From a bacterium (lineage in GTDB: Bacteria; Patescibacteriota; Minisyncoccia; UBA6257; GWB1-50-10): a stretch of DNA of 64,000 bases. Shown piece by piece: positions 1,980-59,000 of the stretch; the stretch's first letter is position 1, and the number at the start of each line of letters is the position of its first letter. A model generated the notes under the pieces. The model saw only the letters and a program-made list of their open reading frames with translations, was not told the origin of the DNA and did no database searches. The stretch spans positions 45,538 through 109,537 of the forward strand of contig JAKAHD010000002.1 of assembly GCA_021815205.1 (NCBI GenBank), given 5' to 3'. The position numbers were made by a program, and so were the translations under genes.

Positions 1980-1991
1980 CTGACACGGATA

Positions 1992-2015
1992 GTGCTATGC
2001 CCTATAGCATGGCAC
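1992..2015. repeat. GTGCTATG...CATAGCAC palindrome family (imperfect copy)
   Basis: agtgctatgccctatagcatggcac immediately after stop of 306..1979. Confidence 0.5.
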
Positions 2016-2050
2016 CTGACTGAGATAATATAGTTGCACCCCTATTGATA

Positions 2051-6196: not shown

Positions 6197-6652
6197 ATGA
6201 CAACGACAACTCCAAAAACGAAAAAAACTTCGGCGGGAAATTCCGGAAAAGAGCGGTATCTCGAGGCGGTCGGAAGAAGAAAGACGGCGGTTGCGCGCGT
6301 CCGCCTTTTTACGGGGCGTCCAAAATCAAGCAAGGAACCAGAGATGATGGTGAATGGAAAGGGATTTACCGAATACTTCGGTCTCGTAAAACAGCAGGAG
6401 ATCGTACGCGCTCCGTTTCAGGCGCTCTCGCTTAAAGAGTACAACGCGACCGCGCTCGTGAAGGGCGGGGGCGTGCATGCGCAGGCGGAGGCGATCCGTC
6501 TCGGGCTCTCGAGGACGCTCGTCGCGATGAACCCCATCTGGCGCTCGAAATTGAAATCGCTCGGATTTTTGAAACGCGATCCCCGCAAAGTGGAACGCAA
6601 AAAGTACGGTCTGCGAAAAGCAAGAAGACCTCAGCAATGGCGTAAACGTTAA
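6197..6652 (+). CDS. rpsI: 30S ribosomal protein S9
   Basis: C-terminal GGG..AQA.A.RLG..RAL...KRDPR..ERKKYG..KARR..Q..KR. Confidence 0.95.
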   Translation: MTTTTPKTKKTSAGNSGKERYLEAVGRRKTAVARVRLFTGRPKSSKEPEMMVNGKGFTEYFGLVKQQEIVRAPFQALSLKEYNATALVKGGGVHAQAEAIRLGLSRTLVAMNPIWRSKLKSLGFLKRDPRKVERKKYGLRKARRPQQWRKR

Positions 6653-6716
6653 AAAAATCCCCTATCGGGGGATTTTTCTTTACGCCATTGCTGAGAGGAG
6701 GGGGTGATGGGGGAGG
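6634..6716 (+). repeat. 83-bp direct repeat copy 1 (rpsI 3' end + terminator + G-rich hairpin)
   Basis: caatggcgtaaacgttaaaaaaatcccctatcgggggatttttctttacgccattgctgagaggagggggtgatgggggaggg; identical again at 6795-6877. Confidence 0.85.
6652..6681 (+). terminator. rho-independent terminator of rpsI
   Basis: aaatcccc-tatc-ggggattt stem-loop then T-run; duplicated at ~6813-6842. Confidence 0.75.
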
Positions 6717-6794
6717 GCGGGAAATGAGCCCTCCCCCAAGCCGGAGCTCGCGAACCGAATGGTTCGCGGGAGTCCGCCAAAGGCGGACGACGCA

Positions 6795-6877
6795 ACAATG
6801 GCGTAAACGTTAAAAAAATCCCCTATCGGGGGATTTTTCTTTACGCCATTGCTGAGAGGAGGGGGTGATGGGGGAGG
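6795..6877 (+). repeat. 83-bp direct repeat copy 2 (includes second terminator copy)
   Basis: Perfect repeat of 6634-6716, 161 bp downstream. Confidence 0.85.
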
Positions 6878-6880
6878 GGC

Positions 6881-6972
6881 GGATCGCTGTATTGAAAAAG
6901 TGTGCGCTCCAAGACCGCCTGCCTGCGCAGGCAGGCGAGGCCGGTCTTACCCACTTTTTCAATACAGCGAAT
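6881..6972. repeat. ~90-nt near-perfect hairpin/palindrome at the convergent junction
   Basis: gctgtattgaaaaagtg...cactttttcaatacagc arms (17/17), aagaccg/cggtctt, central perfect palindrome cctgcctgcgcaggcagg. Confidence 0.7.
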
Positions 6973-13873: not shown

Positions 13874-13981
13874 AAGCAGATCACGCAGATAAGACGCGGA
13901 TATACGCAGAAATGTATCCGCGTGTTTCTGCGCCGCTTCAGCGTTATCTGCTTCTACGATTCGTATGTTACAATTACCGAT

Positions 13982-14986
13982 ATGACACCAAAAGGGAAGA
14001 AACAGAAGAATGAAAAAATCAGGGTGGCGGTTCTGATGGGCGGACCTTCGACGGAGCACGAGGTGTCCTTGAAAACCGGCGCGAATATCTTGGAGCACTT
14101 CGACCCCGAACAATTCGAAGCGAAAGGAGTTGTGATCAGTAAGGAGGGGAAGTGGCCCTTTGCGGTCGAGGAGCTTCCGCAGAAATTCGACGTGGCATTT
14201 ATCGCGATGCACGGAACCTACGGTGAGGACGGCACGGTGCAGGGGATTCTGGACGAGGTCTCGATCCCGTATACGGGTTCGGGGAAACTCTCGAGTGCGC
14301 TCGGGATGAATAAGTTTCTCTCACTCCGCCTCTTCAAAGATGCGGGGCTCACGATTCCCCCAACGCTCCACTTTATCCTCCGCGACTTCCCTGAGCGGGA
14401 AGAAGAGGTGATGCAAAACATTCTTTGGTATCTCGAGAAGCCCTGGGTCGTGAAGCCGAACTACGGCGGTTCGAGCGTGGGGACCGTGATCATAAATGAT
14501 AAAGAAGCGCTCCGCGACGTACTTCGCGCCGCGGCGAACGATTATAAAGATGCGCTGGTGCAGACGTGCATTCCCGGAAGGGAAGTCACGTGCGGTGTTG
14601 TGGATTACGGCACGGAGGATTCGGCGTTCGCGCTTCCGCCTACAGAGATCGTGCCGCGGGCGAGCCGCTTTTTTGATTACAAGGCGAAGTACGAGCCCGG
14701 CGGTTCGGATGAGATTACTCCCGCCCGATTTCCCGAGTCGTTCCTTAAGGAGTTCAGGAGGATTGCGCTTCTCACGCACCGGCTTACGGGATGCAGGGGA
14801 TTCTCGCGCACCGATATGATTGTGGGAAAAGATAAGAAGATATACCTCCTCGAGATCAATACGATCCCGGGGCTCACGAAAGAAAGTCTGCTCCCGAAGG
14901 CCGCGCACGTCTACGGCATCCCGTTCCAGAAACTCCTTGAGCTCCTTGTGGAATCGGCGTTCGCTTCGCATAAGAGAAAATCATAG
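13982..14986 (+). CDS. ddl: D-alanine--D-alanine ligase
   Basis: ATP-grasp; RVAVLMGG.S.EHEVSL.T; MHGTYGEDGTVQG.L; start at MTPKGKK. Confidence 0.9.
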   Translation: MTPKGKKQKNEKIRVAVLMGGPSTEHEVSLKTGANILEHFDPEQFEAKGVVISKEGKWPFAVEELPQKFDVAFIAMHGTYGEDGTVQGILDEVSIPYTGSGKLSSALGMNKFLSLRLFKDAGLTIPPTLHFILRDFPEREEEVMQNILWYLEKPWVVKPNYGGSSVGTVIINDKEALRDVLRAAANDYKDALVQTCIPGREVTCGVVDYGTEDSAFALPPTEIVPRASRFFDYKAKYEPGGSDEITPARFPESFLKEFRRIALLTHRLTGCRGFSRTDMIVGKDKKIYLLEINTIPGLTKESLLPKAAHVYGIPFQKLLELLVESAFASHKRKS

Positions 14987-15173: not shown

Positions 15174-15197
15174 GGTGCTATGCTATAGCATAGCACC
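15174..15197. repeat. perfect 24-bp palindrome ggtgctatgctatagcatagcacc (P family)
   Basis: Exact self-complementarity; one of 7 copies in the window. Confidence 0.9.
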
Positions 15198-15213: not shown

Positions 15214-15310
15214 CCCTCGCATAACGTAAGAGAAAAAAGGAGAATATAATATGATGAAAACTTCGAAAAATGAAAGAGGTCGCTTTTATAGTGAGTTATG
15301 TGAGGGATGA
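15214..15310 (+). promoter_or_regulatory. leader element V: inverted repeat sequestering RBS plus 19-aa uORF (15251..15310) coupled by ATGA to downstream gene
   Basis: ccctcgcataac(15214-25) pairs with gttatgtgaggg(15295-306); uORF MMKTSKNERGRFYSELCEG, stop TGA 15308-10 overlaps ATG 15307-09; paralogous element before mreC. Confidence 0.6.
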
Positions 15311-15948
15311 ATCAAGAACAAAGAACTTGTCAGAATTGTAAACAAAGGTTCATGATTGAACCCGACGATTTTGTGTTCTACGAGAAGATAAAGGTGCCGC
15401 CTCCGACCTTTTGCCCCGAGTGTAGGAATGTGCGGAGGATGACGTGGCGCAATGAGCGGACGCTCTATAAGCGTGCCTGCGAAAAGACGGGAAAACAGAT
15501 CATCTCCTGCTTTGCTCCGGATTCCGGGATCCATGTATACGATCGCGATATATGGTGGTCAGACGAGTGGAATCCGCTCTCATTTGGTCGAGAATACGAT
15601 TTTTTGAGGCCGTTTTTCTCCCAGTTTCGCGAGCTGCTCGGCGCAGTCCCTATGCCGGCGGTATTCAACAGCCGATGTGTGCGGACTGAGTATGCGAATC
15701 ACGGCGGCGAGCTTAAAGATTCATACCTCGTGTTTGCCTCATGGGGAGGGGAGAATCTGCTCTACAGTAGCAAGATACAAAACGGAAAAGATTCACCCGA
15801 TCTCCTTGTTGTAAGTAATTCCGAACTCTGCTACGAGGTAATGAATTCTTCAAAACACTTCCACGGCGACACGCCCTGTCCGAACGAATTTGAGACAAGC
15901 TATGCCCCCAACCGCCCTGAGATCATCTATTGTGAAAGCTGCTACTAG
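15307..15948 (+). CDS. hypothetical Cys-rich protein with N-terminal zinc-ribbon (CxxC...CxxC)
   Basis: CQNCKQRF...CPECRNV and C-terminal CPNEF...CESCY; flanked by P palindromes. Confidence 0.5.
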   Translation: MNQEQRTCQNCKQRFMIEPDDFVFYEKIKVPPPTFCPECRNVRRMTWRNERTLYKRACEKTGKQIISCFAPDSGIHVYDRDIWWSDEWNPLSFGREYDFLRPFFSQFRELLGAVPMPAVFNSRCVRTEYANHGGELKDSYLVFASWGGENLLYSSKIQNGKDSPDLLVVSNSELCYEVMNSSKHFHGDTPCPNEFETSYAPNRPEIIYCESCY

Positions 15949-15962
15949 GCGGAGGTAGTGTG

Positions 15963-15996
15963 CCATAGGTGCTATGACATGTCATAGCACCTATGG
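15963..15996. repeat. perfect 34-bp palindrome ccataggtgctatgacatgtcatagcacctatgg (P family)
   Basis: Exact self-complementarity, 15 nt after stop of 15307..15948. Confidence 0.9.
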
Positions 15997-16032
15997 TGCG
16001 TGCCATATGCGATATTGATCGGTGGAGCCCCA

Positions 16033-16262
16033 CGGCTTTACCCCCACACCATGGGCGTAAGCTCATGGTGTGAGGGTTTACAGCCGTGGCACCGCTCCAC
16101 ACGCTTCGTCGGGCGGAACCCTCCGAAGCGTATCCTCCTTCGCTCAAGCTACGGAGGATGCCCTCGTGCACCCCCGCATCTATGTATAGGTGTGGGGGTG
16201 CATCCCTGCATTTACGGGTGGGGCTTTCTCCGCTTCGCGGAGGAGGGTAGATTCAAGTATGA
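16033..16262. repeat. composite repeat C1 (contains Y-type cccccacac...gtgtggggg palindromes plus ~150-bp conserved core shared with 57375-57560)
   Basis: acggctttacccccacaccatggg...tttacagccgtggcaccgctccacacgcttcgtcgggcggaaccctccgaagcg shared with C2; second Y-like palindrome at ~16168-16203. Confidence 0.7.
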
Positions 16263-16297
16263 TAAGGGGAGGAGTATAATAAACAAAACATGAGAAT

Positions 16298-16720
16298 ATG
16301 AAAAAGAAGAAAATGCATATCTCGCTCATTTCGCATTACCCATCGCGTAAAGAATGGGAGAGCGCTTCGTGGGAGATAATTGTGCGATCTCCAGACATCC
16401 TTAACGCGCTGACTACTCCTCGCGAACGCCACGATTTAGTGATGCGCACCGCGGTAATAGAAAGAATTCATTCCGGGAAAAGCTATCGCGAGATTGGAAA
16501 AGAATTGTGGTGTTCTCCGCAGACCATAAGCAGCATCAAAAAGGCGCTTTATGAGAAAAAGTATCGAAGTTACCGAGAGCGGGGCAAAACAGAGCGGAAG
16601 AAAAGAGTGTATTCCTCGTTCTCCCGCAGAGCCGAACGAGAACCTAAGAAAAGAAAAGCGTACCGCGATTACGGTATGCCTCAATTATCGGGTATTTCAA
16701 GAAGACACCCGCTTAATTAA
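16298..16720 (+). CDS. TrpR-like (YerC/YecD family) HTH protein
   Basis: R..V...I..G.SYREIG......S..TISSIKKAL matches the YerC/YecD TrpR-like HTH pattern. Confidence 0.55.
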   Translation: MKKKKMHISLISHYPSRKEWESASWEIIVRSPDILNALTTPRERHDLVMRTAVIERIHSGKSYREIGKELWCSPQTISSIKKALYEKKYRSYRERGKTERKKRVYSSFSRRAEREPKKRKAYRDYGMPQLSGISRRHPLN

Positions 16721-16739
16721 GTACAGAAGGAAGAACAGG

Positions 16740-16767
16740 AGGGTGCTATGACATGTCATAGCACCCT
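16740..16767. repeat. perfect 28-bp palindrome agggtgctatgacatgtcatagcaccct (P family)
   Basis: Exact self-complementarity 20 nt after the stop of the TrpR-like gene. Confidence 0.9.
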
Positions 16768-16883
16768 CTATGCGTCAGAGGATGTATTTCGTTAGATTTT
16801 ACTGAGTCTCTTTCTGCTCCGAGTGCCGTATCGCTGTTTTTCGTTTTATTACCTTCTTCTCCGGGTTGTGGTATGGTTACCTT

Positions 16884-27244: not shown

Positions 27245-27278
27245 ACCAAGTTATTTCGCCATGGCGAAATAACTTGGT
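27245..27278. promoter_or_regulatory. perfect 34-bp palindrome accaagttatttcgccatggcgaaataacttggt (operator-like) at start of PaaX-like gene
   Basis: Exact self-complementarity; 42-bp version at 28042-28083. Confidence 0.7.
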
Positions 27279-27900
27279 AGAAAATGGAACGCGCGCCAAA
27301 ATAAGGCACATGACTCAAGGACAGAAAAGAAAAATGCAATTACGGCGCGGATCCCGTGCGCATCATATTATGAAATGTGTTGCATTGGGAGGCGGTGTGC
27401 TGGTTCTATCGCTTGTTGCTCCTATGGGCGGCGCACTCCTTGTGCGAAATTTGATCCGCGTGTATTTCAGGAGGAGATCTTTTGAGAAAAAACGGTTCCT
27501 GAACGACCTCAAGAGTCTTCGGGAACGCAGTTTGGTGGAGTATCATGAGTCACGGGACGGAACGGTGAGGATTACGTTCACAAAAGCGGGAAAAGAAAAG
27601 ATGCTTGAATATCGGGTGGACGAGATGAAGCTTAAAAGGCCAGAAAAGTGGGATAAAAAATGGCGTCTCGTAATGTTTGATATTCCAAGCGATCACAAAG
27701 AAGCGAGAGATGCATTAAGAAGAAAGTTGAAGAGATTGGAATTTTATCCTATGCAGAAAAGCGTGTATCTTACCCCGTATCCATGCGAAGATGAAATAGA
27801 ATTTTTAGCCGCGCTCTTTGATGTGAGGCGATATATACTCGTGCTTTACGCAAGCGGTTTTGAGAGCGAGGAGAAATTAAAACGGCATTTTGATTTGTGA
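27274..27900 (+). CDS. PaaX-like regulator: N-terminal hydrophobic segment, wHTH, Cas2/VapD-like domain (start uncertain, possibly 27310 or 27370)
   Basis: SLVEYHESRDGTVRITFTKAGKEKM (winged helix) then WRLVMFDIPSDHKEARDALRRKLKRLEFYPMQKSVYL (Cas2-like strand-helix-strand as in PaaX central domain). Confidence 0.5.
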   Translation: MVENGTRAKIRHMTQGQKRKMQLRRGSRAHHIMKCVALGGGVLVLSLVAPMGGALLVRNLIRVYFRRRSFEKKRFLNDLKSLRERSLVEYHESRDGTVRITFTKAGKEKMLEYRVDEMKLKRPEKWDKKWRLVMFDIPSDHKEARDALRRKLKRLEFYPMQKSVYLTPYPCEDEIEFLAALFDVRRYILVLYASGFESEEKLKRHFDL

Positions 27901-28041: not shown

Positions 28042-28083
28042 GCCACACCAAGTTATTTCGCCATGGCGAAATAACTTGGTGTG
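28042..28083. promoter_or_regulatory. perfect 42-bp palindrome ccacaccaagttatttcgccatggcgaaataacttggtgtgg (second operator-like copy)
   Basis: Exact self-complementarity; ~40 nt upstream of PKD-domain gene. Confidence 0.7.
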
Positions 28084-28121
28084 GGCATGGAGGTAGTACA
28101 AATGTGTATAATAAAAGAGTA

Positions 28122-44441: not shown

Positions 44442-44589
44442 TAAAATAAGGAGATGGGATTGAAGATCAGGGATTTTTCCGCATCGGTTATCAGAAAAAT
44501 TTTCGGGCTTCTCGAATTTTTCCTTTTCTTAAGAGTAGTGCTTGAGTTTTTAAATGCGAATCCCGCCGCGGTCGTGGCGGATTATTTTT

Positions 44590-44635
44590 ACCCCCACACT
44601 GAGCGTAAGCCCATAGTGTGGGGGTTTATCGGATC
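44590..44635. repeat. Y-type palindromic repeat (acccccacac-N-gtgtgggggt)
   Basis: tttacccccacactgagcgtaagcccatagtgtgggggtttat; same tttaccccc.../...gggggtttac ends as copies at 16040 and 57385. Confidence 0.65.
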
Positions 44636-44899: not shown

Positions 44900-44983
44900 G
44901 CTCAGGTGTCGGAACTGGTAGACGATCACGACTCAAAATCGTGTGGCCGTAAGGCCGTGAGGGTTCAAGTCCCTCCCTGAGCA
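44900..44983 (+). tRNA. tRNA-Leu (anticodon CAA)
   Basis: Acceptor gctcagg/cctgagc, anticodon stem cacga/tcgtg with loop cuCAAaa, long variable arm ggccgtaaggcc, T-arm gaggg-ttcaagt-ccctc, discriminator A. Confidence 0.85.
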
Positions 44984-44985
44984 CA

Positions 44986-45555
44986 ATGGGAGTACGAACA
45001 TCATTTCATCGAGCGTCTAGTGCGGATACTTTAGAAAATAAAGAAAATCTTTCTTATGTCATTGGTGTAGCCATTGGTGATGGTAATCTCTCAAATCCAA
45101 ACGGAAGGACAGTGCGCTTAAGGGTAACTTGCGCCACTCAATACCCGAATCTTATCAGGCAAATAAAGAAATCTATAGAGAAAGTATTCCCGCATAATAA
45201 AGTATCCCTCGTGAAAAGAAAGGAGACATATTTGGATGTCAGCTGTTATTCCAATAAATGGGAGAGTATTCTTGGATGGAGAGCGTCTGGCGGTTCGAAA
45301 TACAAACAAAGCGTTTCTGTTCCCCAATGGATAAAAGAAAATAAAAGATATTCCATGAAATGCCTGCAAGGACTGTTAGTGACCGATGGCTCCTTATATC
45401 TTGATAGAGGGTATAGAATGATTAATTTTACGACTGTGATTCCACGGCTTGCGCAAGACGTGAGAGAAATGATTGTTAATTTATGGTTCAGCTCAAGAAT
45501 CTACAGATTAAAAACAAAAGGAAAAGATAAGTATGTTATTAAGAATAGCAACTAA
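44986..45555 (+). CDS. LAGLIDADG homing endonuclease (two-motif, free-standing)
   Basis: LSYVIGVAIGDGNL and LQGLLVTDGSLY motifs; AT-rich ORF starting 3 nt after tRNA-Leu. Confidence 0.8.
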   Translation: MGVRTSFHRASSADTLENKENLSYVIGVAIGDGNLSNPNGRTVRLRVTCATQYPNLIRQIKKSIEKVFPHNKVSLVKRKETYLDVSCYSNKWESILGWRASGGSKYKQSVSVPQWIKENKRYSMKCLQGLLVTDGSLYLDRGYRMINFTTVIPRLAQDVREMIVNLWFSSRIYRLKTKGKDKYVIKNSN

Positions 45556-45607: not shown

Positions 45608-46549
45608 ATGGCTCGCGTCATAGCAGTATGCAATCAAAAAGGGGGCGTCGGGAAAACCACAACCGCAATGAATCTTGCGGCATATCTCGCAATATATGGG
45701 AGACGGGTGCTCCTTATTGATTTCGACCCGCAGTTCAATGCGACGTCCGGATTGGGCGTGACCTACGCGCCGGACGAGACGATCTACCACGCACTCCTCG
45801 GGGGACAGGCGCACGAGCGGGTGATCAAGCGCACCTATCTCGCAAATCTCGAGCTTACGCCCGCGTCTCCGGATCTCGCGGGGGCCTTGGTGGAGCTTGT
45901 GAATCTTCCCGAGAGGGAATGGTATCTGCATCGCTTTGTGAAAAAGGTGGGGGATTGGTATGATTTTGTGCTCATAGATCTCGGGCCAAGTTTAAACCTT
46001 CTCACCGTGAACGGGCTTCTCGCCGCGGATGAAGTCTTAATCCCTGTGCAGTGCGAATACTACAGTTTGGAAGGATTGTCCCAGCTCTTGGAGAGCATCG
46101 AGCTCATCAAGAATAATCTGGGGCACGAGATTCGTTCGGTGAGCGCCCTTATCACCATGTACGACAAACGGGAAAAACTTTCGCGCGAGATTGCGCGCGA
46201 AGTGCGCCGCCGTTTTCCGTACAAGGTGTATGAGGCGGAGATACCGCGATCGGTGAGTCTCGCCGAAGCGCCGAGTTACAAAAAACCGATCATGCTCTAC
46301 GCGCCGCAGAGCCCCGGCGCGATCGCGTACGAGGCGCTTGCGCAGGAGATTCTCGGGATGGTCGAGGAACGCGTGATGGGTACGCATCCTCCCATGCGCC
46401 CGGTCGAGAAAAAACTCGCCTCGATGCAAAAAGAAGCGTCTCGGATAGTGGAATCCGCGATGCAAGAAGAAGCCGCGCGCGCCGATTTCGAAGCACCCCC
46501 CTTTGAACTTCCCCTGGACGCCCCGTATCCCTTTGACATCTTGCGATAA
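45608..46549 (+). CDS. parA: chromosome partitioning ATPase ParA/Soj
   Basis: Deviant Walker A KGGVGKTTTA; ParA family; C-terminal extension. Confidence 0.9.
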   Translation: MARVIAVCNQKGGVGKTTTAMNLAAYLAIYGRRVLLIDFDPQFNATSGLGVTYAPDETIYHALLGGQAHERVIKRTYLANLELTPASPDLAGALVELVNLPEREWYLHRFVKKVGDWYDFVLIDLGPSLNLLTVNGLLAADEVLIPVQCEYYSLEGLSQLLESIELIKNNLGHEIRSVSALITMYDKREKLSREIAREVRRRFPYKVYEAEIPRSVSLAEAPSYKKPIMLYAPQSPGAIAYEALAQEILGMVEERVMGTHPPMRPVEKKLASMQKEASRIVESAMQEEAARADFEAPPFELPLDAPYPFDILR

Positions 46550-46986
46550 CTCCTTCTCGCTTATTTTTCCCGGATTGTATCGAAGTTCAACCTCGCTATT
46601 TTTAGGATAGTGAAGTTGAACTTCGATAGGGTTTCCGGGTTCCGTATGTTTCATCAAACCTCGTGTTGACACGCGAGAGCGGAATGCTATCATTCTCTAC
46701 GGTTCGTGCCAATGTGAGGAGGTCTTGTCGTGTTCGAATTCGCACACGGCCGTTGCGGAGGAGGGTGCGACAGGCATTCGATCATTTGTATTGAGCTAAC
46801 GTATACGTTTCACTAAGACAGAGGATCATACTACGATCTCCGAAACGGTGTACCAAGTACTTCATATTTCGAGTTGCTCTTTGTTTATTTTTTATTGACA
46901 TTGTCCTCGAGATTTCTTTTGAAGGAACGGAATATCGTCGAAGGAGGCCTTGGTGTGCCTCTGTTTTAGTTTGTTCTCTTAGATTA

Positions 46987-47036
46987 CCGCTGATTGCGAG
47001 CTGATTTTCGCGGATATGGCATCTGCGGCAATCAGC
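46987..47036. repeat. MITE-like element Z (copy without nested insert)
   Basis: ccgctgattgcgagctgattttcgcggatatggcatctgcggcaatcagc. Confidence 0.55.
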
Positions 47037-47102
47037 TTCACCCCGTTAGAAGTTGCGCAGAAATAATGATGCGTCTTCTTCTATGATGCGATTATCATAA
47101 AT

Positions 47103-47229
47103 CCCGTGAGAAGCTCACATGGGGTAGTAAACCCCGCGTTCGCCACGGGACGAGGCATTCACCCCCACACTAAATGAGTGTGGGGGTTCATCCCTGTGGC
47201 ACGCCCGGGGTTTTCTGCTTCTCACGGGA
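47103..47229. repeat. MITE-like element X with nested Y palindrome (47161-47187)
   Basis: tcccgtgagaagctcacatggggtagtaaaccccgcgttcgccacggg[acgaggcattcacccccacactaaatgagtgtgggggttcatccctgtggcacgcccgg]ggttttctgcttctcacggga vs uninterrupted copy at 10104-10171. Confidence 0.75.
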
Positions 47230-47363
47230 TAAAGAACTGGGAGTGATCCCAATGTGAGACTTCTAACGGGGTAAAATCAGCGAAATTTTGAACAACAAAA
47301 AGAATACGGGGCAACAACAATTATGAATACCAACAATCCTCCGCTATAATATATAATAATTAT

Positions 47364-48302
47364 ATGCCAGGACAGGGATTATCTTCTCTCATTCCGCAAA
47401 AAGGAAACGAGGAGCATACGCGCGGAGAAGAGAAGGCGCACCCCGAAGTATTGCCGCTCGTGAACGCGCACGAGCACGTGGCGCCGCCGCGCGAGAAGCG
47501 CGATCATCACGCGCACGAATCGGTGTTCCAAATAGAAACGGAGAAAATAAAACCGAATCCGTATCAGCCGCGGCACGAATTTGAGGAAGAAGGAATCGAG
47601 GAGCTCATGCAGTCGATCAGGGAGTTTGGCGTCATACAGCCGCTTATCGTTTCAAGTATCACCGAAGAAACGGAATCGGGAACGCGCGTCTCATACCAGC
47701 TCATTGCCGGGGAGCGGCGCCTTCGCGCCGCGAAGAAACTCGGGCTCGCCCAAGTGCCTGCAATCATAAGAGCGGTCAATGAGGGCCGTTCGAAGCTCGA
47801 GATGGCGCTTATTGAGAACATTCAACGAGAAGACTTGAACCCGCTCGAAGCGGCGAACGCCTACGTGCGGCTCGCGGATGAGTTCCAGCTTACCCAGCGG
47901 GAGATCGCCCGTAAGGTGGGGAAAAGCAGGGAGACGGTGGCGAATGCCATGCGGCTTCTGGGGCTTCCGGCGCATATCCAAAGCGCGCTCCGCGAAAAAA
48001 AGATCAGCGAGTCGCAGGCGCGGACCCTGCTCGGCATAAATGATCGCGAGGCGCAGGAAAATGCGTTTCGGGATGCCCTCGAGAAAAAAACAAGTGTCCA
48101 TTCGCTTCGGATGAAGCGCCCTGCGGCCGAGTCCCCATCGGATTCGGAAACGGCATACTGGAAGAAGCGATTTGAGGAAACGCTCGGCATGCCCGTCGCG
48201 ATCGCGAAAAAGAACGGGAAAGGGAAGATCACGCTTTCTTTCTATTCCGAGGAAGAGTGGAACGCGCTCGTTGGCAAGCTTCTCGGCGAGATGAAAGAAT
48301 GA
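47364..48302 (+). CDS. parB: chromosome partitioning protein ParB/Spo0J
   Basis: ParB box (GERRLRAAK), HTH, N-terminal IKPNPYQPR. Confidence 0.9.
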   Translation: MPGQGLSSLIPQKGNEEHTRGEEKAHPEVLPLVNAHEHVAPPREKRDHHAHESVFQIETEKIKPNPYQPRHEFEEEGIEELMQSIREFGVIQPLIVSSITEETESGTRVSYQLIAGERRLRAAKKLGLAQVPAIIRAVNEGRSKLEMALIENIQREDLNPLEAANAYVRLADEFQLTQREIARKVGKSRETVANAMRLLGLPAHIQSALREKKISESQARTLLGINDREAQENAFRDALEKKTSVHSLRMKRPAAESPSDSETAYWKKRFEETLGMPVAIAKKNGKGKITLSFYSEEEWNALVGKLLGEMKE

Positions 48303-50521: not shown

Positions 50522-50635
50522 ATAATTATATCAGCATACATCTGCCTTATCAGTATAAATCAGCGTCGGCCCCTCATCTGTAAGAGAACGCTGATCAATG
50601 CTGATAGAGCCGATAGATGCTGATAACGAATGAAT

Positions 50636-55765: not shown

Positions 55766-55881
55766 TTCATCAGGATCCATCTCAAAAGTACTCAGAATTA
55801 TGCTCTGGGACTCCTCGAATGCGCCAAGGAAGTTCAACTTCTTTAGAGAGTCGAACTTCGAAGACACTCCGCGTTGAAACA

Positions 55882-55915
55882 CCGAGGGTGCTATGACATG
55901 TCATAGCACCCTCGG
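55882..55915. repeat. perfect 34-bp palindrome ccgagggtgctatgacatgtcatagcaccctcgg (P family)
   Basis: Exact self-complementarity. Confidence 0.9.
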
Positions 55916-55955
55916 TGCGGTGGAAAAAAGGGGATGATTGTGTAATAATAAAGGC

Positions 55956-57365: not shown

Positions 57366-57374
57366 TGTGGAGCC

Positions 57375-57560
57375 CTACGGCTTTACCCCCACACCATGGG
57401 CTCATGATGTGGGGGGTTTACACCCGTGGCACCGCTCCACACGCTTCGTCAGGCGAAACCCTCCGAAGCGATCCTTCTTCGCCAAAGGCTACGAAGGATA
57501 CCCTCCTTTGCATTCATCCATGGGCTTACACCCGTGGTTTTCTGCGAAGGAGGGTAAAAA
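57375..57560. repeat. composite repeat C2 (Y palindrome 57385-57417 plus conserved core shared with C1)
   Basis: acggctttacccccacaccatggg...tttacacccgtggcaccgctccacacgcttcgtcaggcgaaaccctccgaagcg aligns with 16033-16130. Confidence 0.7.
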
Positions 57561-57635: not shown

Positions 57636-57661
57636 AGGTGCTATGCTATAGCATAGCACCT
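57636..57661. repeat. perfect 26-bp palindrome aggtgctatgctatagcatagcacct (P family)
   Basis: Exact self-complementarity. Confidence 0.9.
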
Positions 57662-57708: not shown

Positions 57709-58224
57709 GTGCGGGAGAAGATCGGGAAAGAAATAAGAAGGGGGACAAAGGGTTACCCATGTTACTTTCTCGTTGATAACACAAAGCTCATTCCGCATCT
57801 GAGTTTGTGGCATGTACGGATGAGGGAGAAGGATATCAAAGTGCTTTCTGAGGAATTGAAGAAGCTGCTAAGAAAGCAAAATTCGATTGTCATACGCGCT
57901 CCGAGGTTTGAGGTCTCGAAGCGGAGCAACATAGTCAGTTTCGCGGTTCAGGGCTCTCAATCACTTTCCTCGCTTCAATTGCTCGGGTTGTGGAAAGGGG
58001 AGACGCTCAAAGAAGCAAGGAAGTACGGCCGACCGTTCCGGTTTGATCCGTACTTCACAATGGGGGTAATGAGGCGGCGCGAAGACACACTCACGGTGGA
58101 AAAGAATATGCAAGGAGTGAGATTCCAATTCGCCGCGAACGAGATTTACATTTGCGAGGTAAATCGCTGGTGGCAAGTGACGAGGATGATAAAAAAGATA
58201 ACGTTTGGAAAAAGTTATAAGTAG
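57709..58224 (+). CDS. hypothetical protein (single H-x-S/T-x motif; possible degenerate 2H phosphoesterase-like) flanked by P palindromes
   Basis: 171 aa; PHLSLWHV resembles one HxTx motif of the 2H family, second motif not found. Confidence 0.35.
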   Translation: MREKIGKEIRRGTKGYPCYFLVDNTKLIPHLSLWHVRMREKDIKVLSEELKKLLRKQNSIVIRAPRFEVSKRSNIVSFAVQGSQSLSSLQLLGLWKGETLKEARKYGRPFRFDPYFTMGVMRRREDTLTVEKNMQGVRFQFAANEIYICEVNRWWQVTRMIKKITFGKSYK

Positions 58225-58245: not shown

Positions 58246-58271
58246 GGGTGTTATGACGCGTCATAACACCC
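58246..58271. repeat. perfect 26-bp palindrome gggtgttatgacgcgtcataacaccc (P family variant)
   Basis: Exact self-complementarity. Confidence 0.85.
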
Positions 58272-58490: not shown

Positions 58491-58580
58491 GGAGGGGTCG
58501 CATAGCGGTCTAGTGCGCAGTCCTGGAAAGACTGTATACCCGAAAGGGTATCGAGGGTTCAAATCCCTCCCCCTCCGCCA
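58491..58580 (+). tRNA. tRNA-Ser (anticodon GGA), CCA encoded
   Basis: Acceptor ggagggg/cccctcc, anticodon stem cagtc/gactg loop cuGGAaa, long variable arm tataccc-gaaa-gggtat, T-arm gaggg-ttcaaat-ccctc, discriminator G. Confidence 0.85.
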
Positions 58581-58619
58581 ATACACAAACAGGATATCTT
58601 TATGGTATCCTGTTTGTGT
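58581..58619 (+). terminator. hairpin terminator after tRNA-Ser
   Basis: atacacaaacaggatatc-ttta-tggtatcctgtttgtgtat perfect 17-bp stem. Confidence 0.6.
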
Positions 58620-58741
58620 ATCTTGACGTGCGGATTTGAACGGAACTTTCGCGCCTGCAGGGCAGGATTCAGCGAAAGTCCGTGGCTTCGGAGGAGCAAT
58701 TTCATTTGAGCGAAGCGAATATGTAAATTGCGGAGGAGAAG

Positions 58742-58802
58742 AAATCCCTCCCCCTCCGCCAATACACAAACAGGATATCTTTATGGTATCCTGTTTGTGT
58801 AT
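58742..58802 (+). repeat. 61-bp exact direct repeat of tRNA-Ser 3' end + terminator (copy 1 at 58561-58621); att-site-like
   Basis: aaatccctccccctccgccaatacacaaacaggatatctttatggtatcctgtttgtgtat occurs twice 181 bp apart. Confidence 0.85.
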
Positions 58803-59000
58803 TGGCGGTGTCTTCTGGTTAAAATCCGAACCTACTTTGATGAACATCCGGACGAGGAATGAACCGCCCCGCCGCCGCTCGCTTCGCTCGCTGTTCCGCT
58901 TGAGCGTATTTTTGGCTTGGTTGGCGTCTTTTTCATGTTGTACACAACGCGCATGTTTTGACGTTCTCTCGTTTTGGTATAATGATCACTGTACGGGATC

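Follow-up and report, generated by a model that had tools for sequence, protein, structure and literature searches.

Palindromes and genes of the window

The locus analysed here, referred to as the window, is a stretch of 64,000 nucleotides of contig JAKAHD010000002.1 from a member of the Patescibacteriota, and it carries a family of palindromes, a gene for a TrpR-like protein and a remnant of a Cys-rich protein family (Table 1). Its gene content and the relatives described below place it in Patescibacteria (CPR), and it was matched to contig DAIBZI010000002.1 of MAG GCA_027423515.1. A hairpin scan of the window identified six exact palindromes and one decayed copy, where none would be expected by chance, and when GGTGCTATG-N6-CATAGCACC was used as a search pattern, allowing at most two mismatches, six sites were returned in the window and none in 100 shuffles. 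Outside the common core, every copy in the hairpin scan stays perfectly palindromic with its own flanking bases, and pairs of sites of different subtypes lie within 120–800 bp at four places on the contig. The ORFs to either side of the decayed copy (306–1979 and 2073–2459) have no Pfam match.

These results modify the original prediction, which was of seven exact palindromes of 24–34 bp with two core subtypes. Six of the seven are indeed exact, but the copy near 1992 has a 2-nt insertion and one T.G mismatch and is probably a weak or non-functional site. The exact palindromes measure 24–38 bp, and there are three subtypes, namely a G-type with the centre CTATAG, an S-type with the centre ACATGT and an L-type with GTTATG arms and an ACGCGT centre, the last being the copy at 58246, which reads GGGTGTTATGACGCGTCATAACACCC and differs from the other copies in both arms and centre. 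The pairs said to flank the Cys-rich gene and a hypothetical gene (57709–58224) had been placed correctly, whereas the TrpR-like gene, thought to be followed by a single copy, sits between two copies of the same type (15963 and 16739).

Table 1. Features of the palindrome system in the window; operator and promoter assignments are predictions from sequence.
Feature	Position	Strand	Context
Decayed G-type site, AGTGCTATG-CC-CTATAG-CATGGCACC	1991–2016		12 nt past the stop of ORF 306–1979
Candidate G-type operator, GGTGCTATG CTATAG CATAGCACC, 24 bp	15174–15197		between ddl (13922–14986) and the Cys-rich remnant
Cys-rich family remnant, 213 aa, internally deleted	15307–15948	+	from a ~590-aa family recurring beside CTATAG-type sites
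Candidate S-type operator, 34-bp perfect palindrome, core CTATG ACATGT CATAG	15963–15996		upstream member of the pair at the TrpR-like gene
Predicted -10 element TATAAT (within GGAGTATAAT)	16275–16280	+	putative promoter of the TrpR-like gene, read from the sequence
TrpR-fold HTH regulator P0001, 140 aa	16298–16720	+	proposed ACATGT-type binder (Pfam, Foldseek, hhalign, operator co-variation)
Candidate S-type operator, 30-bp perfect palindrome	16739–16768		18 nt past the TrpR-like stop, ~115 nt before an HtrA-like protease gene
PaaX-like gene (PaaX_M/Cas2-like domain)	27274–27900		between two copies of ACCAAGTTATTTCGCCATGGCGAAATAACTTGGT
Palindrome ACCAAGTTATTTCGCCATGGCGAAATAACTTGGT, two copies	27245–27278, 28043–28084		at the PaaX-like gene
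Candidate S-type operator, 38-bp perfect palindrome	55880–55917		between htpX and a 323-aa hypothetical gene
Candidate G-type operator, 26 bp, centre CTATAG	57636–57661		upstream of a LigT-like gene
Candidate L-type operator, GGGTGTTATG ACGCGT CATAACACCC, 26 bp	58246–58271		after the LigT-like gene; predicted cognate subtype of P0005

Several structures of other kinds were also observed in the window. A second copy of the final 20 nt of tRNA-Ser(GGA) and of a 41-nt hairpin (ATACACAAACAGGATA-N9-TATCCTGTTTGTGTAT) is found ~160 nt downstream (58491–58808) and resembles the att-type scar left behind by a since-lost element that had inserted at the tRNA. The perfect palindrome CGCCTGCCTGCGCAGGCAGGCG (6916–6937) resembles AACCTGCCTGCCGGCAGGCAGGTT on an unrelated CPR contig (L058, 8230–8253) and may be another conserved protein-binding site, and an imperfect inverted repeat with 38-nt arms of 79% complementarity (50529–50625), which stops 5 nt short of the groEL start codon, is possibly a heat-shock operator and does not resemble CIRCE. 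Following rpsI, a block of ~160 nt is duplicated in tandem (6630–6695 and 6793–6854), each copy having a terminator-like hairpin AAAAATCCCCTATCGGGGGATTTTT nested in an inverted repeat of 15–17 nt. A LAGLIDADG-type ORF (44986–45555, in the region 44900–45555) begins 2 nt after tRNA-Leu(CAA). The genes parA and parB (45608–48302) lie ~800 nt apart with hairpins between them at 46578, 46780, 46999 and 47153, and no canonical parS with up to two mismatches was found in the window. A switch of GC skew near 60 kb, considered as a replication terminus, is explained by a 1745-aa gene of different composition.

A TrpR-like regulator gene between two copies of its proposed site

The original prediction had listed the TrpR-like gene merely as a neighbour of the palindromes. 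Its product P0001 matches the Pfam family Trp_repressor (PF01371) barely over threshold, and a profile search of PDB sequences identified the TrpR-like protein 3kor of S. aureus (E = 4e-4). The AlphaFold2 model has a confident helical core (pLDDT >90 at residues ~10–85), for which the top Foldseek matches were E. coli TrpR and TrpR-like structures with probabilities of 0.99–1.0. In an hhalign comparison with the E. coli TrpR sequence (E = 9e-6), SPQTISS of P0001 is placed opposite G78-I79-A80-T81-I82-T83-R84. The bracketed proteins of CPR are ~125–150 aa long, have no recognisable catalytic domain and carry an added conserved basic segment, YRSY-X-ERGKTERKK...RTKYG.

A scan for the motif in one genome per species revealed 52 loci, ~34 of them in Patescibacteria of many classes, including Saccharibacteria, Zambryski-, Jorgensen-, Wolfe-, Brenner- and Paceibacteria and Parcubacteria. 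The CPR loci have the centre CTATAG, ACATGT or a near variant, and variants in their arms are nearly always compensated on both arms. The 17 matches outside CPR have arbitrary centres, several with a T-tract behind them, as chance terminators would have; among the at least 120 viral-contig loci listed with a looser pattern there were chance hairpins only and no centre of the CPR type. When the ORFs beside the palindromes were clustered, two families recurred, one TrpR-like of ~140 aa and one Cys-rich of ~590 aa, and all eight TrpR-like genes at the loci found through the palindrome were bracketed.

Homologues were also fetched by protein only, to avoid ascertainment bias. Those from an exact protein look-up (L054–L061) were all bracketed, and a degenerate-peptide scan of metagenome contigs yielded 79 loci with 67 distinct genes, among which bracketing was counted for the genes with enough flank. 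For the genes fetched from metagenomes by protein pattern alone, a palindrome was present upstream in 58 of 62, at 0–76 nt past the stop codon in 58 of 63, and on both sides in 52 of 58. The 16-bp core was the same upstream and downstream at 43 of those 52 loci, compared with 10% between different loci. Up to 100 nt from the gene there were 8.7 sites per kb, compared with 0.03–0.15 per kb at distances above 500 nt, or approximately one site per 7–36 kb. It is the regulator gene itself that is bracketed consistently across CPR. A bracketed TrpR-like regulator system in CPR was not found in the literature searched (CPR palindromes, YerC, regulons), and the CPR-wide layout of each regulator gene between two copies of its own site is undescribed there.

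A TrpR-family HTH gene is thus present and physically linked to the palindromes, and the core NCTATG-N6-CATAGN, which occurs in all lineages, matches the layout of HisR operators. Comparison across these loci strongly supports the TrpR-like gene product as the candidate binding protein of the palindromes. The original prediction had left a choice between a site for a dimeric DNA-binding protein and an RNA hairpin; the protein site is the part that is strongly supported, whereas the hairpin is disfavoured by copies that lack T-tracts and by copies between divergent genes.

Promoter geometry of the upstream site

At 33 of 57 proximal upstream sites an extended -10 element (TGnTAnnnT) follows 5–6 nt after the core, a spacing seen at 2 of 57 in the reverse orientation and at none of 57 downstream sites. 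The operator core then lies at about -36 to -21, over the -35 region, in most CPR lineages, and in ACATGT/ACGCGT-type sites the half-site ATGACA occupies the position of the -35 hexamer. As the upstream site lies over the promoter, autorepression is its natural reading, and the geometry suggests that this is its effect in most CPR lineages; the upstream copy is probably an operator embedded in the promoter and untranscribed.

The lineage of the window has a different arrangement, with the centre of the upstream site near -65 from the predicted transcription start and not over the promoter. The sequence GGAGTATAAT occurs ~36 nt after the upstream palindrome of the paralogue genes P0007 and P0005 described below, and in P0001 the upstream site is ~300 nt from the gene with a hairpin-rich insertion of ~280 nt between them. 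Among the other copies, the one at 55880–55917 ends 3 nt ahead of a promoter-like TGGAAA-17-AATAAT.

A hairpin-rich repeat of ~145 nt was observed at 16022–16165 and 57367–57505 (87% identical), with a partial copy at 44587–44628. It is full of CCCCCACAC motifs, and both full copies adjoin operator palindromes, the one at 16022–16165 standing between the TrpR-like gene and its upstream operator. No Rfam match to the repeat was found; an E-value search of 15950–16300 gave sub-threshold chance matches alone, and at the gathering threshold the whole window contained two tRNAs and nothing else. The repeat could be a MITE or a small RNA.

Protein residues that track bases of the proposed operators

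The operators vary across lineages, with arms of CTATG, CTTTG, CTGTG, TTATG, ATATG and GTATG and centres of ACATGT, ACGCGT, CTATAG, ATGCAT, ATATAT, CCGCGG, AACCTT, CCCAGG, CTGCAG and ACCGGT. Three residues of the protein follow this variation almost without exception, in counts that are not corrected for phylogeny. Residue 74, which aligns with TrpR Ile79, is P with CTATG arms (51/51), S with CT[T/G]TG (10/12), L with [A/T]TATG (5/5) and R with GTATG (1/1). Residue 79, which aligns with TrpR Arg84, is associated with the start of the centre, S or T with an A (31/33) and G with a C (12/18). Residue 93, the X of YRSY-X-ERGK, is associated with the second base of the centre: R with C (38/38), L, W, F, H or Q with T (22/25), A with A (3/3) and K with C (3/3). 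The same three residues are the columns with the highest mutual information in the whole 70-sequence alignment (kinship uncorrected), residue 93 reaching 1.11 bits, and the DNA positions tracked are arm positions 1 and 3 and centre positions 1 and 2.

Shared ancestry is unlikely to be the sole cause of this code, because all combinations of the residue-74 and residue-93 classes occur and each of them obeys it. The pairing of Arg or Lys with a G:C pair and of Leu, Trp or Phe with a T:A pair would also be chemically sensible. In addition, residues 74 and 79 align with residues of E. coli TrpR, Ile79 and Arg84, that contact DNA.

The genome of the window, or a near-identical one, encodes three paralogues of the regulator, whose private sites differ from each other. 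P0001 (P74, S79, R93) lies between CTATG-ACATGT-CATAG sites. P0007 (P74, G79, W93), which is on the contig of the window but outside it (L054, 5001–5441), lies between CTATG-CTATAG-CATAG sites. P0005 (L74, R93), which comes from a near-identical organism of the same sequencing run as P0007 and is not on the window's contig, lies between TTATG-ACGCGT-CATAA sites. The third of these confirms a prediction. Under the code, the GTTATG-ACGCGT-CATAAC subtype at 58246 was expected to go with a paralogue carrying L at residue 74, and P0005, which has the sequence SLQTIGSIKR and R93, proved to have precisely GGTGTTATGACGCGTCATAACACC both upstream and downstream. Two further metagenome contigs have pairs of paralogues with differing private sites, and in all such differences between paralogues of one genome were seen on three contigs. 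The best reading of the palindrome subtypes in the window would be that they are the operator classes of the three paralogous regulators.

Genes beside the other sites

The genes facing non-self sites encode MiaA, PGK, FtsH, Nramp, TyrRS/TrpRS, LepA, a TypA-like GTPase, a DsbA-like protein, PfkB, glycerate kinase, an HtrA-like protease and the htpX neighbour. No functional theme was found among the genes beside non-self sites, and a classical metabolic regulon is not evident. The sole recurrent family beside them is the Cys-rich one, which is next to CTATAG-type sites in the window and at five other loci (L015, L022, L036, L046 and L054). At one of these (L054) the CTATAG-type site ends 8 nt ahead of the ATG of a full-length Cys-rich copy. 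The family has no Pfam or NCBIfam match. Its members have CxxC pairs at both ends and occur in multiple copies, in tandem in some CPR MAGs; in addition to the copy in the window (15307–15948), copies were observed at 260–2041 of L046 and 10009–10441 of L054.

Interpretation and alternative explanations

We consider it highly probable that the palindromes are operators of three paralogous, mutually distinct TrpR-family regulators that belong to a CPR-specific branch of the TrpR/YerC (HisR) family. At the level of sequence, comparison establishes that gene and site go together, that each paralogue has a subtype of its own and that a code connects residues with bases. In the mechanism that we propose, each palindrome would act as double-stranded DNA bound by a homodimer of the CPR branch of this HTH family, with a functional core of ~16–20 bp, (N)CTATG-N6-CATAG(N), in the 7+6+7 layout of HisR operators; the dimeric state is itself an expectation. 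The other copies in the window would be further targets of the three regulators, namely the copy that follows ORF 306–1979, the one separating ddl from the Cys-rich gene, the one past htpX and the two that flank the LigT-like gene. The site past the stop codon would be a second operator, forming a loop or a roadblock, and not a terminator.

Two features fall outside the simple operator model, namely the conserved site past the stop codon and the perfect palindromic extension. This extension reaches 3–12 bp past any plausible protein footprint, and the chance of one more base pair is ~0.7 compared with 0.25 at random. Provisionally, the copy-specific extension may be left behind when a strong palindrome undergoes hairpin-templated repair or template switching. 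Potentially, operator, regulator gene and operator form a self-contained duplicating module that has branched in CPR into several families of repressor/operator pairs, mutually distinct and governed by a simple three-residue code, and the palindromes also have a structural role, acting as cruciforms, hairpins, roadblocks or loop anchors that insulate or bracket neighbouring genes. We hold this broader reading to be rather unlikely; if true, it would represent a CPR-specific form of gene insulation rather than a plain regulon.

A different explanation is that the palindromes function as RNA hairpins, as bidirectional terminators without U-tracts, insulators or stabilisers of 3' ends, with the TrpR-like link being incidental or the protein binding RNA. 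Their predicted folding is strong (-17 to -33 kcal/mol, z-scores of -4 to -7), many copies lie 0–50 nt past a stop codon and some between convergent genes, and the stems lengthen by copy-specific complementary bases. At proximal upstream sites, the first unpaired position was also G.T slightly more often than expected (34/79); in a mixed set, however, G.T was at chance (12/71), and the stems stop abruptly with no pairing past the first mismatch. The location of the copies likewise speaks against transcripts as their site of action. Some lie between divergent genes, the upstream copies precede the conserved extended -10 and so are probably untranscribed, and those in tandem gene pairs show no bias to stop codons (median distances of ~72 nt from the stop codon and 73 nt from the start that follows). 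Palindromes found mostly at operon ends with U-tracts would have told against the original prediction, and a test for T-tracts after the downstream copies was negative (57 loci; mean of 3.25 T in 10 nt, with six or more T in 12%). No copy in the window has a T-tract after it, although the hairpin scan revealed ordinary hairpins with an A-tract, stem and T-tract elsewhere in the window (6653, 6814 and 56970). An intrinsic terminator is ruled out because of the missing U-tracts, the copies between divergent genes and the upstream copies ahead of a -10 element. The co-variation of residues in the HTH recognition helix, two of which align with DNA-contacting residues of TrpR, further makes a hairpin function improbable as the main explanation, and a secondary RNA role is possible for the copies past stop codons.

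We give even less weight to the palindromes being mobile or recombinogenic elements, REP/RAYT-like, MITE-like or attC-like, that move cassettes with the TrpR-like protein as a DNA-binding accessory factor. A gene flanked by a palindrome that is also scattered through the genome is a REPtron-like layout, the palindrome families vary by lineage, and a palindrome separates tandem Cys-rich paralogues. The bracketed genes vary as well, with the orders ddl-P-Cys-P-TrpR-P-HtrA in the window, ddl-P-TrpR-P-PGK in L007 and ddl-P-TyrRS in L031 (P, palindrome). However, the bracketed protein is a TrpR-fold HTH protein of ~130–150 aa that has no recognisable catalytic domain, and the gene tables, which cover ~6.3–63.3 kb of the window, contain no integrase, transposase, RAYT or HUH gene. 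The sites are sparse away from the regulator gene, and the upstream copy forms part of a promoter, with constant spacing. The resemblance to attC-flanked integron cassettes or REP-bounded units that had been suggested originally does not hold, as the palindromes are perfect and short, without the asymmetric features of attC or REP, and the gene consistently bracketed is the regulator. Integron arrays have IntI and attI, imperfect attC hairpins of 57–141 bp with extrahelical bases, and promoterless cassettes in one orientation; here there is no integrase in the gene tables of the window, the sites are perfect and of 24–38 bp, and the regulator has its own promoter. REP/RAYT systems have an HUH-Y1 gene and imperfect palindromes with a GTAG/CGTC head in tens to hundreds of copies per genome; here the flanked gene is of the TrpR fold and the palindromes are perfect, lack that head and are of low density.

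Comparably remote is a role in chromosome structure or insulation, as in parS/ParB, matS/MatP or NBS/Noc-like systems, in which dimers on a pair of palindromes would make a bridge, with the DNA between them looped out. Sites do occur in every intergenic type without positional bias, pairs of them (including pairs of different subtypes) enclose whole genes, the protein has a conserved basic C-terminal tail, and the target genes lack a functional theme. Nevertheless, the sites cluster strongly around the regulator gene itself, where the upstream copy has a fixed promoter geometry, several paralogues of mutually exclusive specificity fit regulation better than global structure, and the window already has a regular ParA/ParB pair. 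A parS-like reading was rejected on anatomy. The CIRCE/HrcA operator, whose consensus is TTAGCACTC-N9-GAGTGCTAA upstream of groE/dnaK, was also rejected, as the arm order here is reversed (GTGCTA...TAGCAC), the spacer is N6 and neither dnaK nor groEL of the window has a copy ahead of it.

Significance for gene regulation in CPR

Very little is known of gene regulation in CPR, and the sole regulon study met in the literature searched, seen there as a reference entry, concerned LexA. If the operator reading is true, CPR have a widespread regulator family whose operator, promoter layout and residue-to-base code can be read from sequence, their regulons would become predictable from metagenomes, and a conspicuous class of perfect CPR palindromes would be explained. 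The paralogues would also represent natural repressor/operator pairs that do not cross-react and, potentially, tools for organisms that are hard to manipulate. Our results raise the question of why the regulator gene keeps a second operator right after its stop codon.

Comparison with known systems

The REPtron has a comparable architecture in that a gene in one or few copies is flanked by a palindrome family that is also scattered in intergenic DNA and changes along with the protein lineage. It differs in that the CPR protein is a TrpR-fold HTH protein and not an HUH/Y1 nuclease, and in that the CPR palindromes are perfect, have no GTAG/CGTC head and are present in far fewer copies, one of which is part of the promoter of the gene.

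E. coli TrpR, which acts at the trp, aroH and trpR operators, has the same fold by Foldseek and hhalign. The similarities extend to operators of ~18–20 bp with twofold symmetry, to two co-varying CPR residues that align with the DNA-contacting Ile79 and Arg84, and potentially to autoregulation through an operator in the gene's own promoter, which we infer for CPR. In contrast to TrpR, the CPR regulators go with another half-site and with a second candidate operator past the stop codon; their third specificity residue is outside the classical HTH, and one small genome has up to three mutually distinct paralogues.

HisR (YerC) of Firmicutes binds 20-bp palindromes, cacTTTA-N6-TAAAgtg (PMC9413887). 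The CPR system shares with it the TrpR-family HTH, the 7+6+7 operator layout with cacTATG-N6-CATAgtg at CPR sites (several of which read CACTATG-N6-CATAGTG), lineage-specific operator variants and occasional paralogues. The CPR proteins are longer, however, at ~125–150 aa compared with <100 aa for HisR, and have the basic extension YRSY-X-ERGKTERKK...RTKYG, whose residue X tracks the operator centre. Further differences are that the CPR regulator gene lies between two operators, that the palindromes are perfect and extend past the operator, and that the CPR genes have no link to histidine genes.

A parallel in layout is present in the window itself, where the PaaX-like gene is also between two copies of a perfect palindrome, although its protein family and palindrome sequence are unrelated to those of the TrpR-like system. 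The gene that follows encodes a PKD-domain protein, and its TATAAT lies 22 nt past the end of the downstream copy of that palindrome. Since the PaaX-like gene is placed in the same manner, the operator-gene-operator layout is perhaps general, and the keeping of a regulator gene between its own sites may be a wider habit of this genome.
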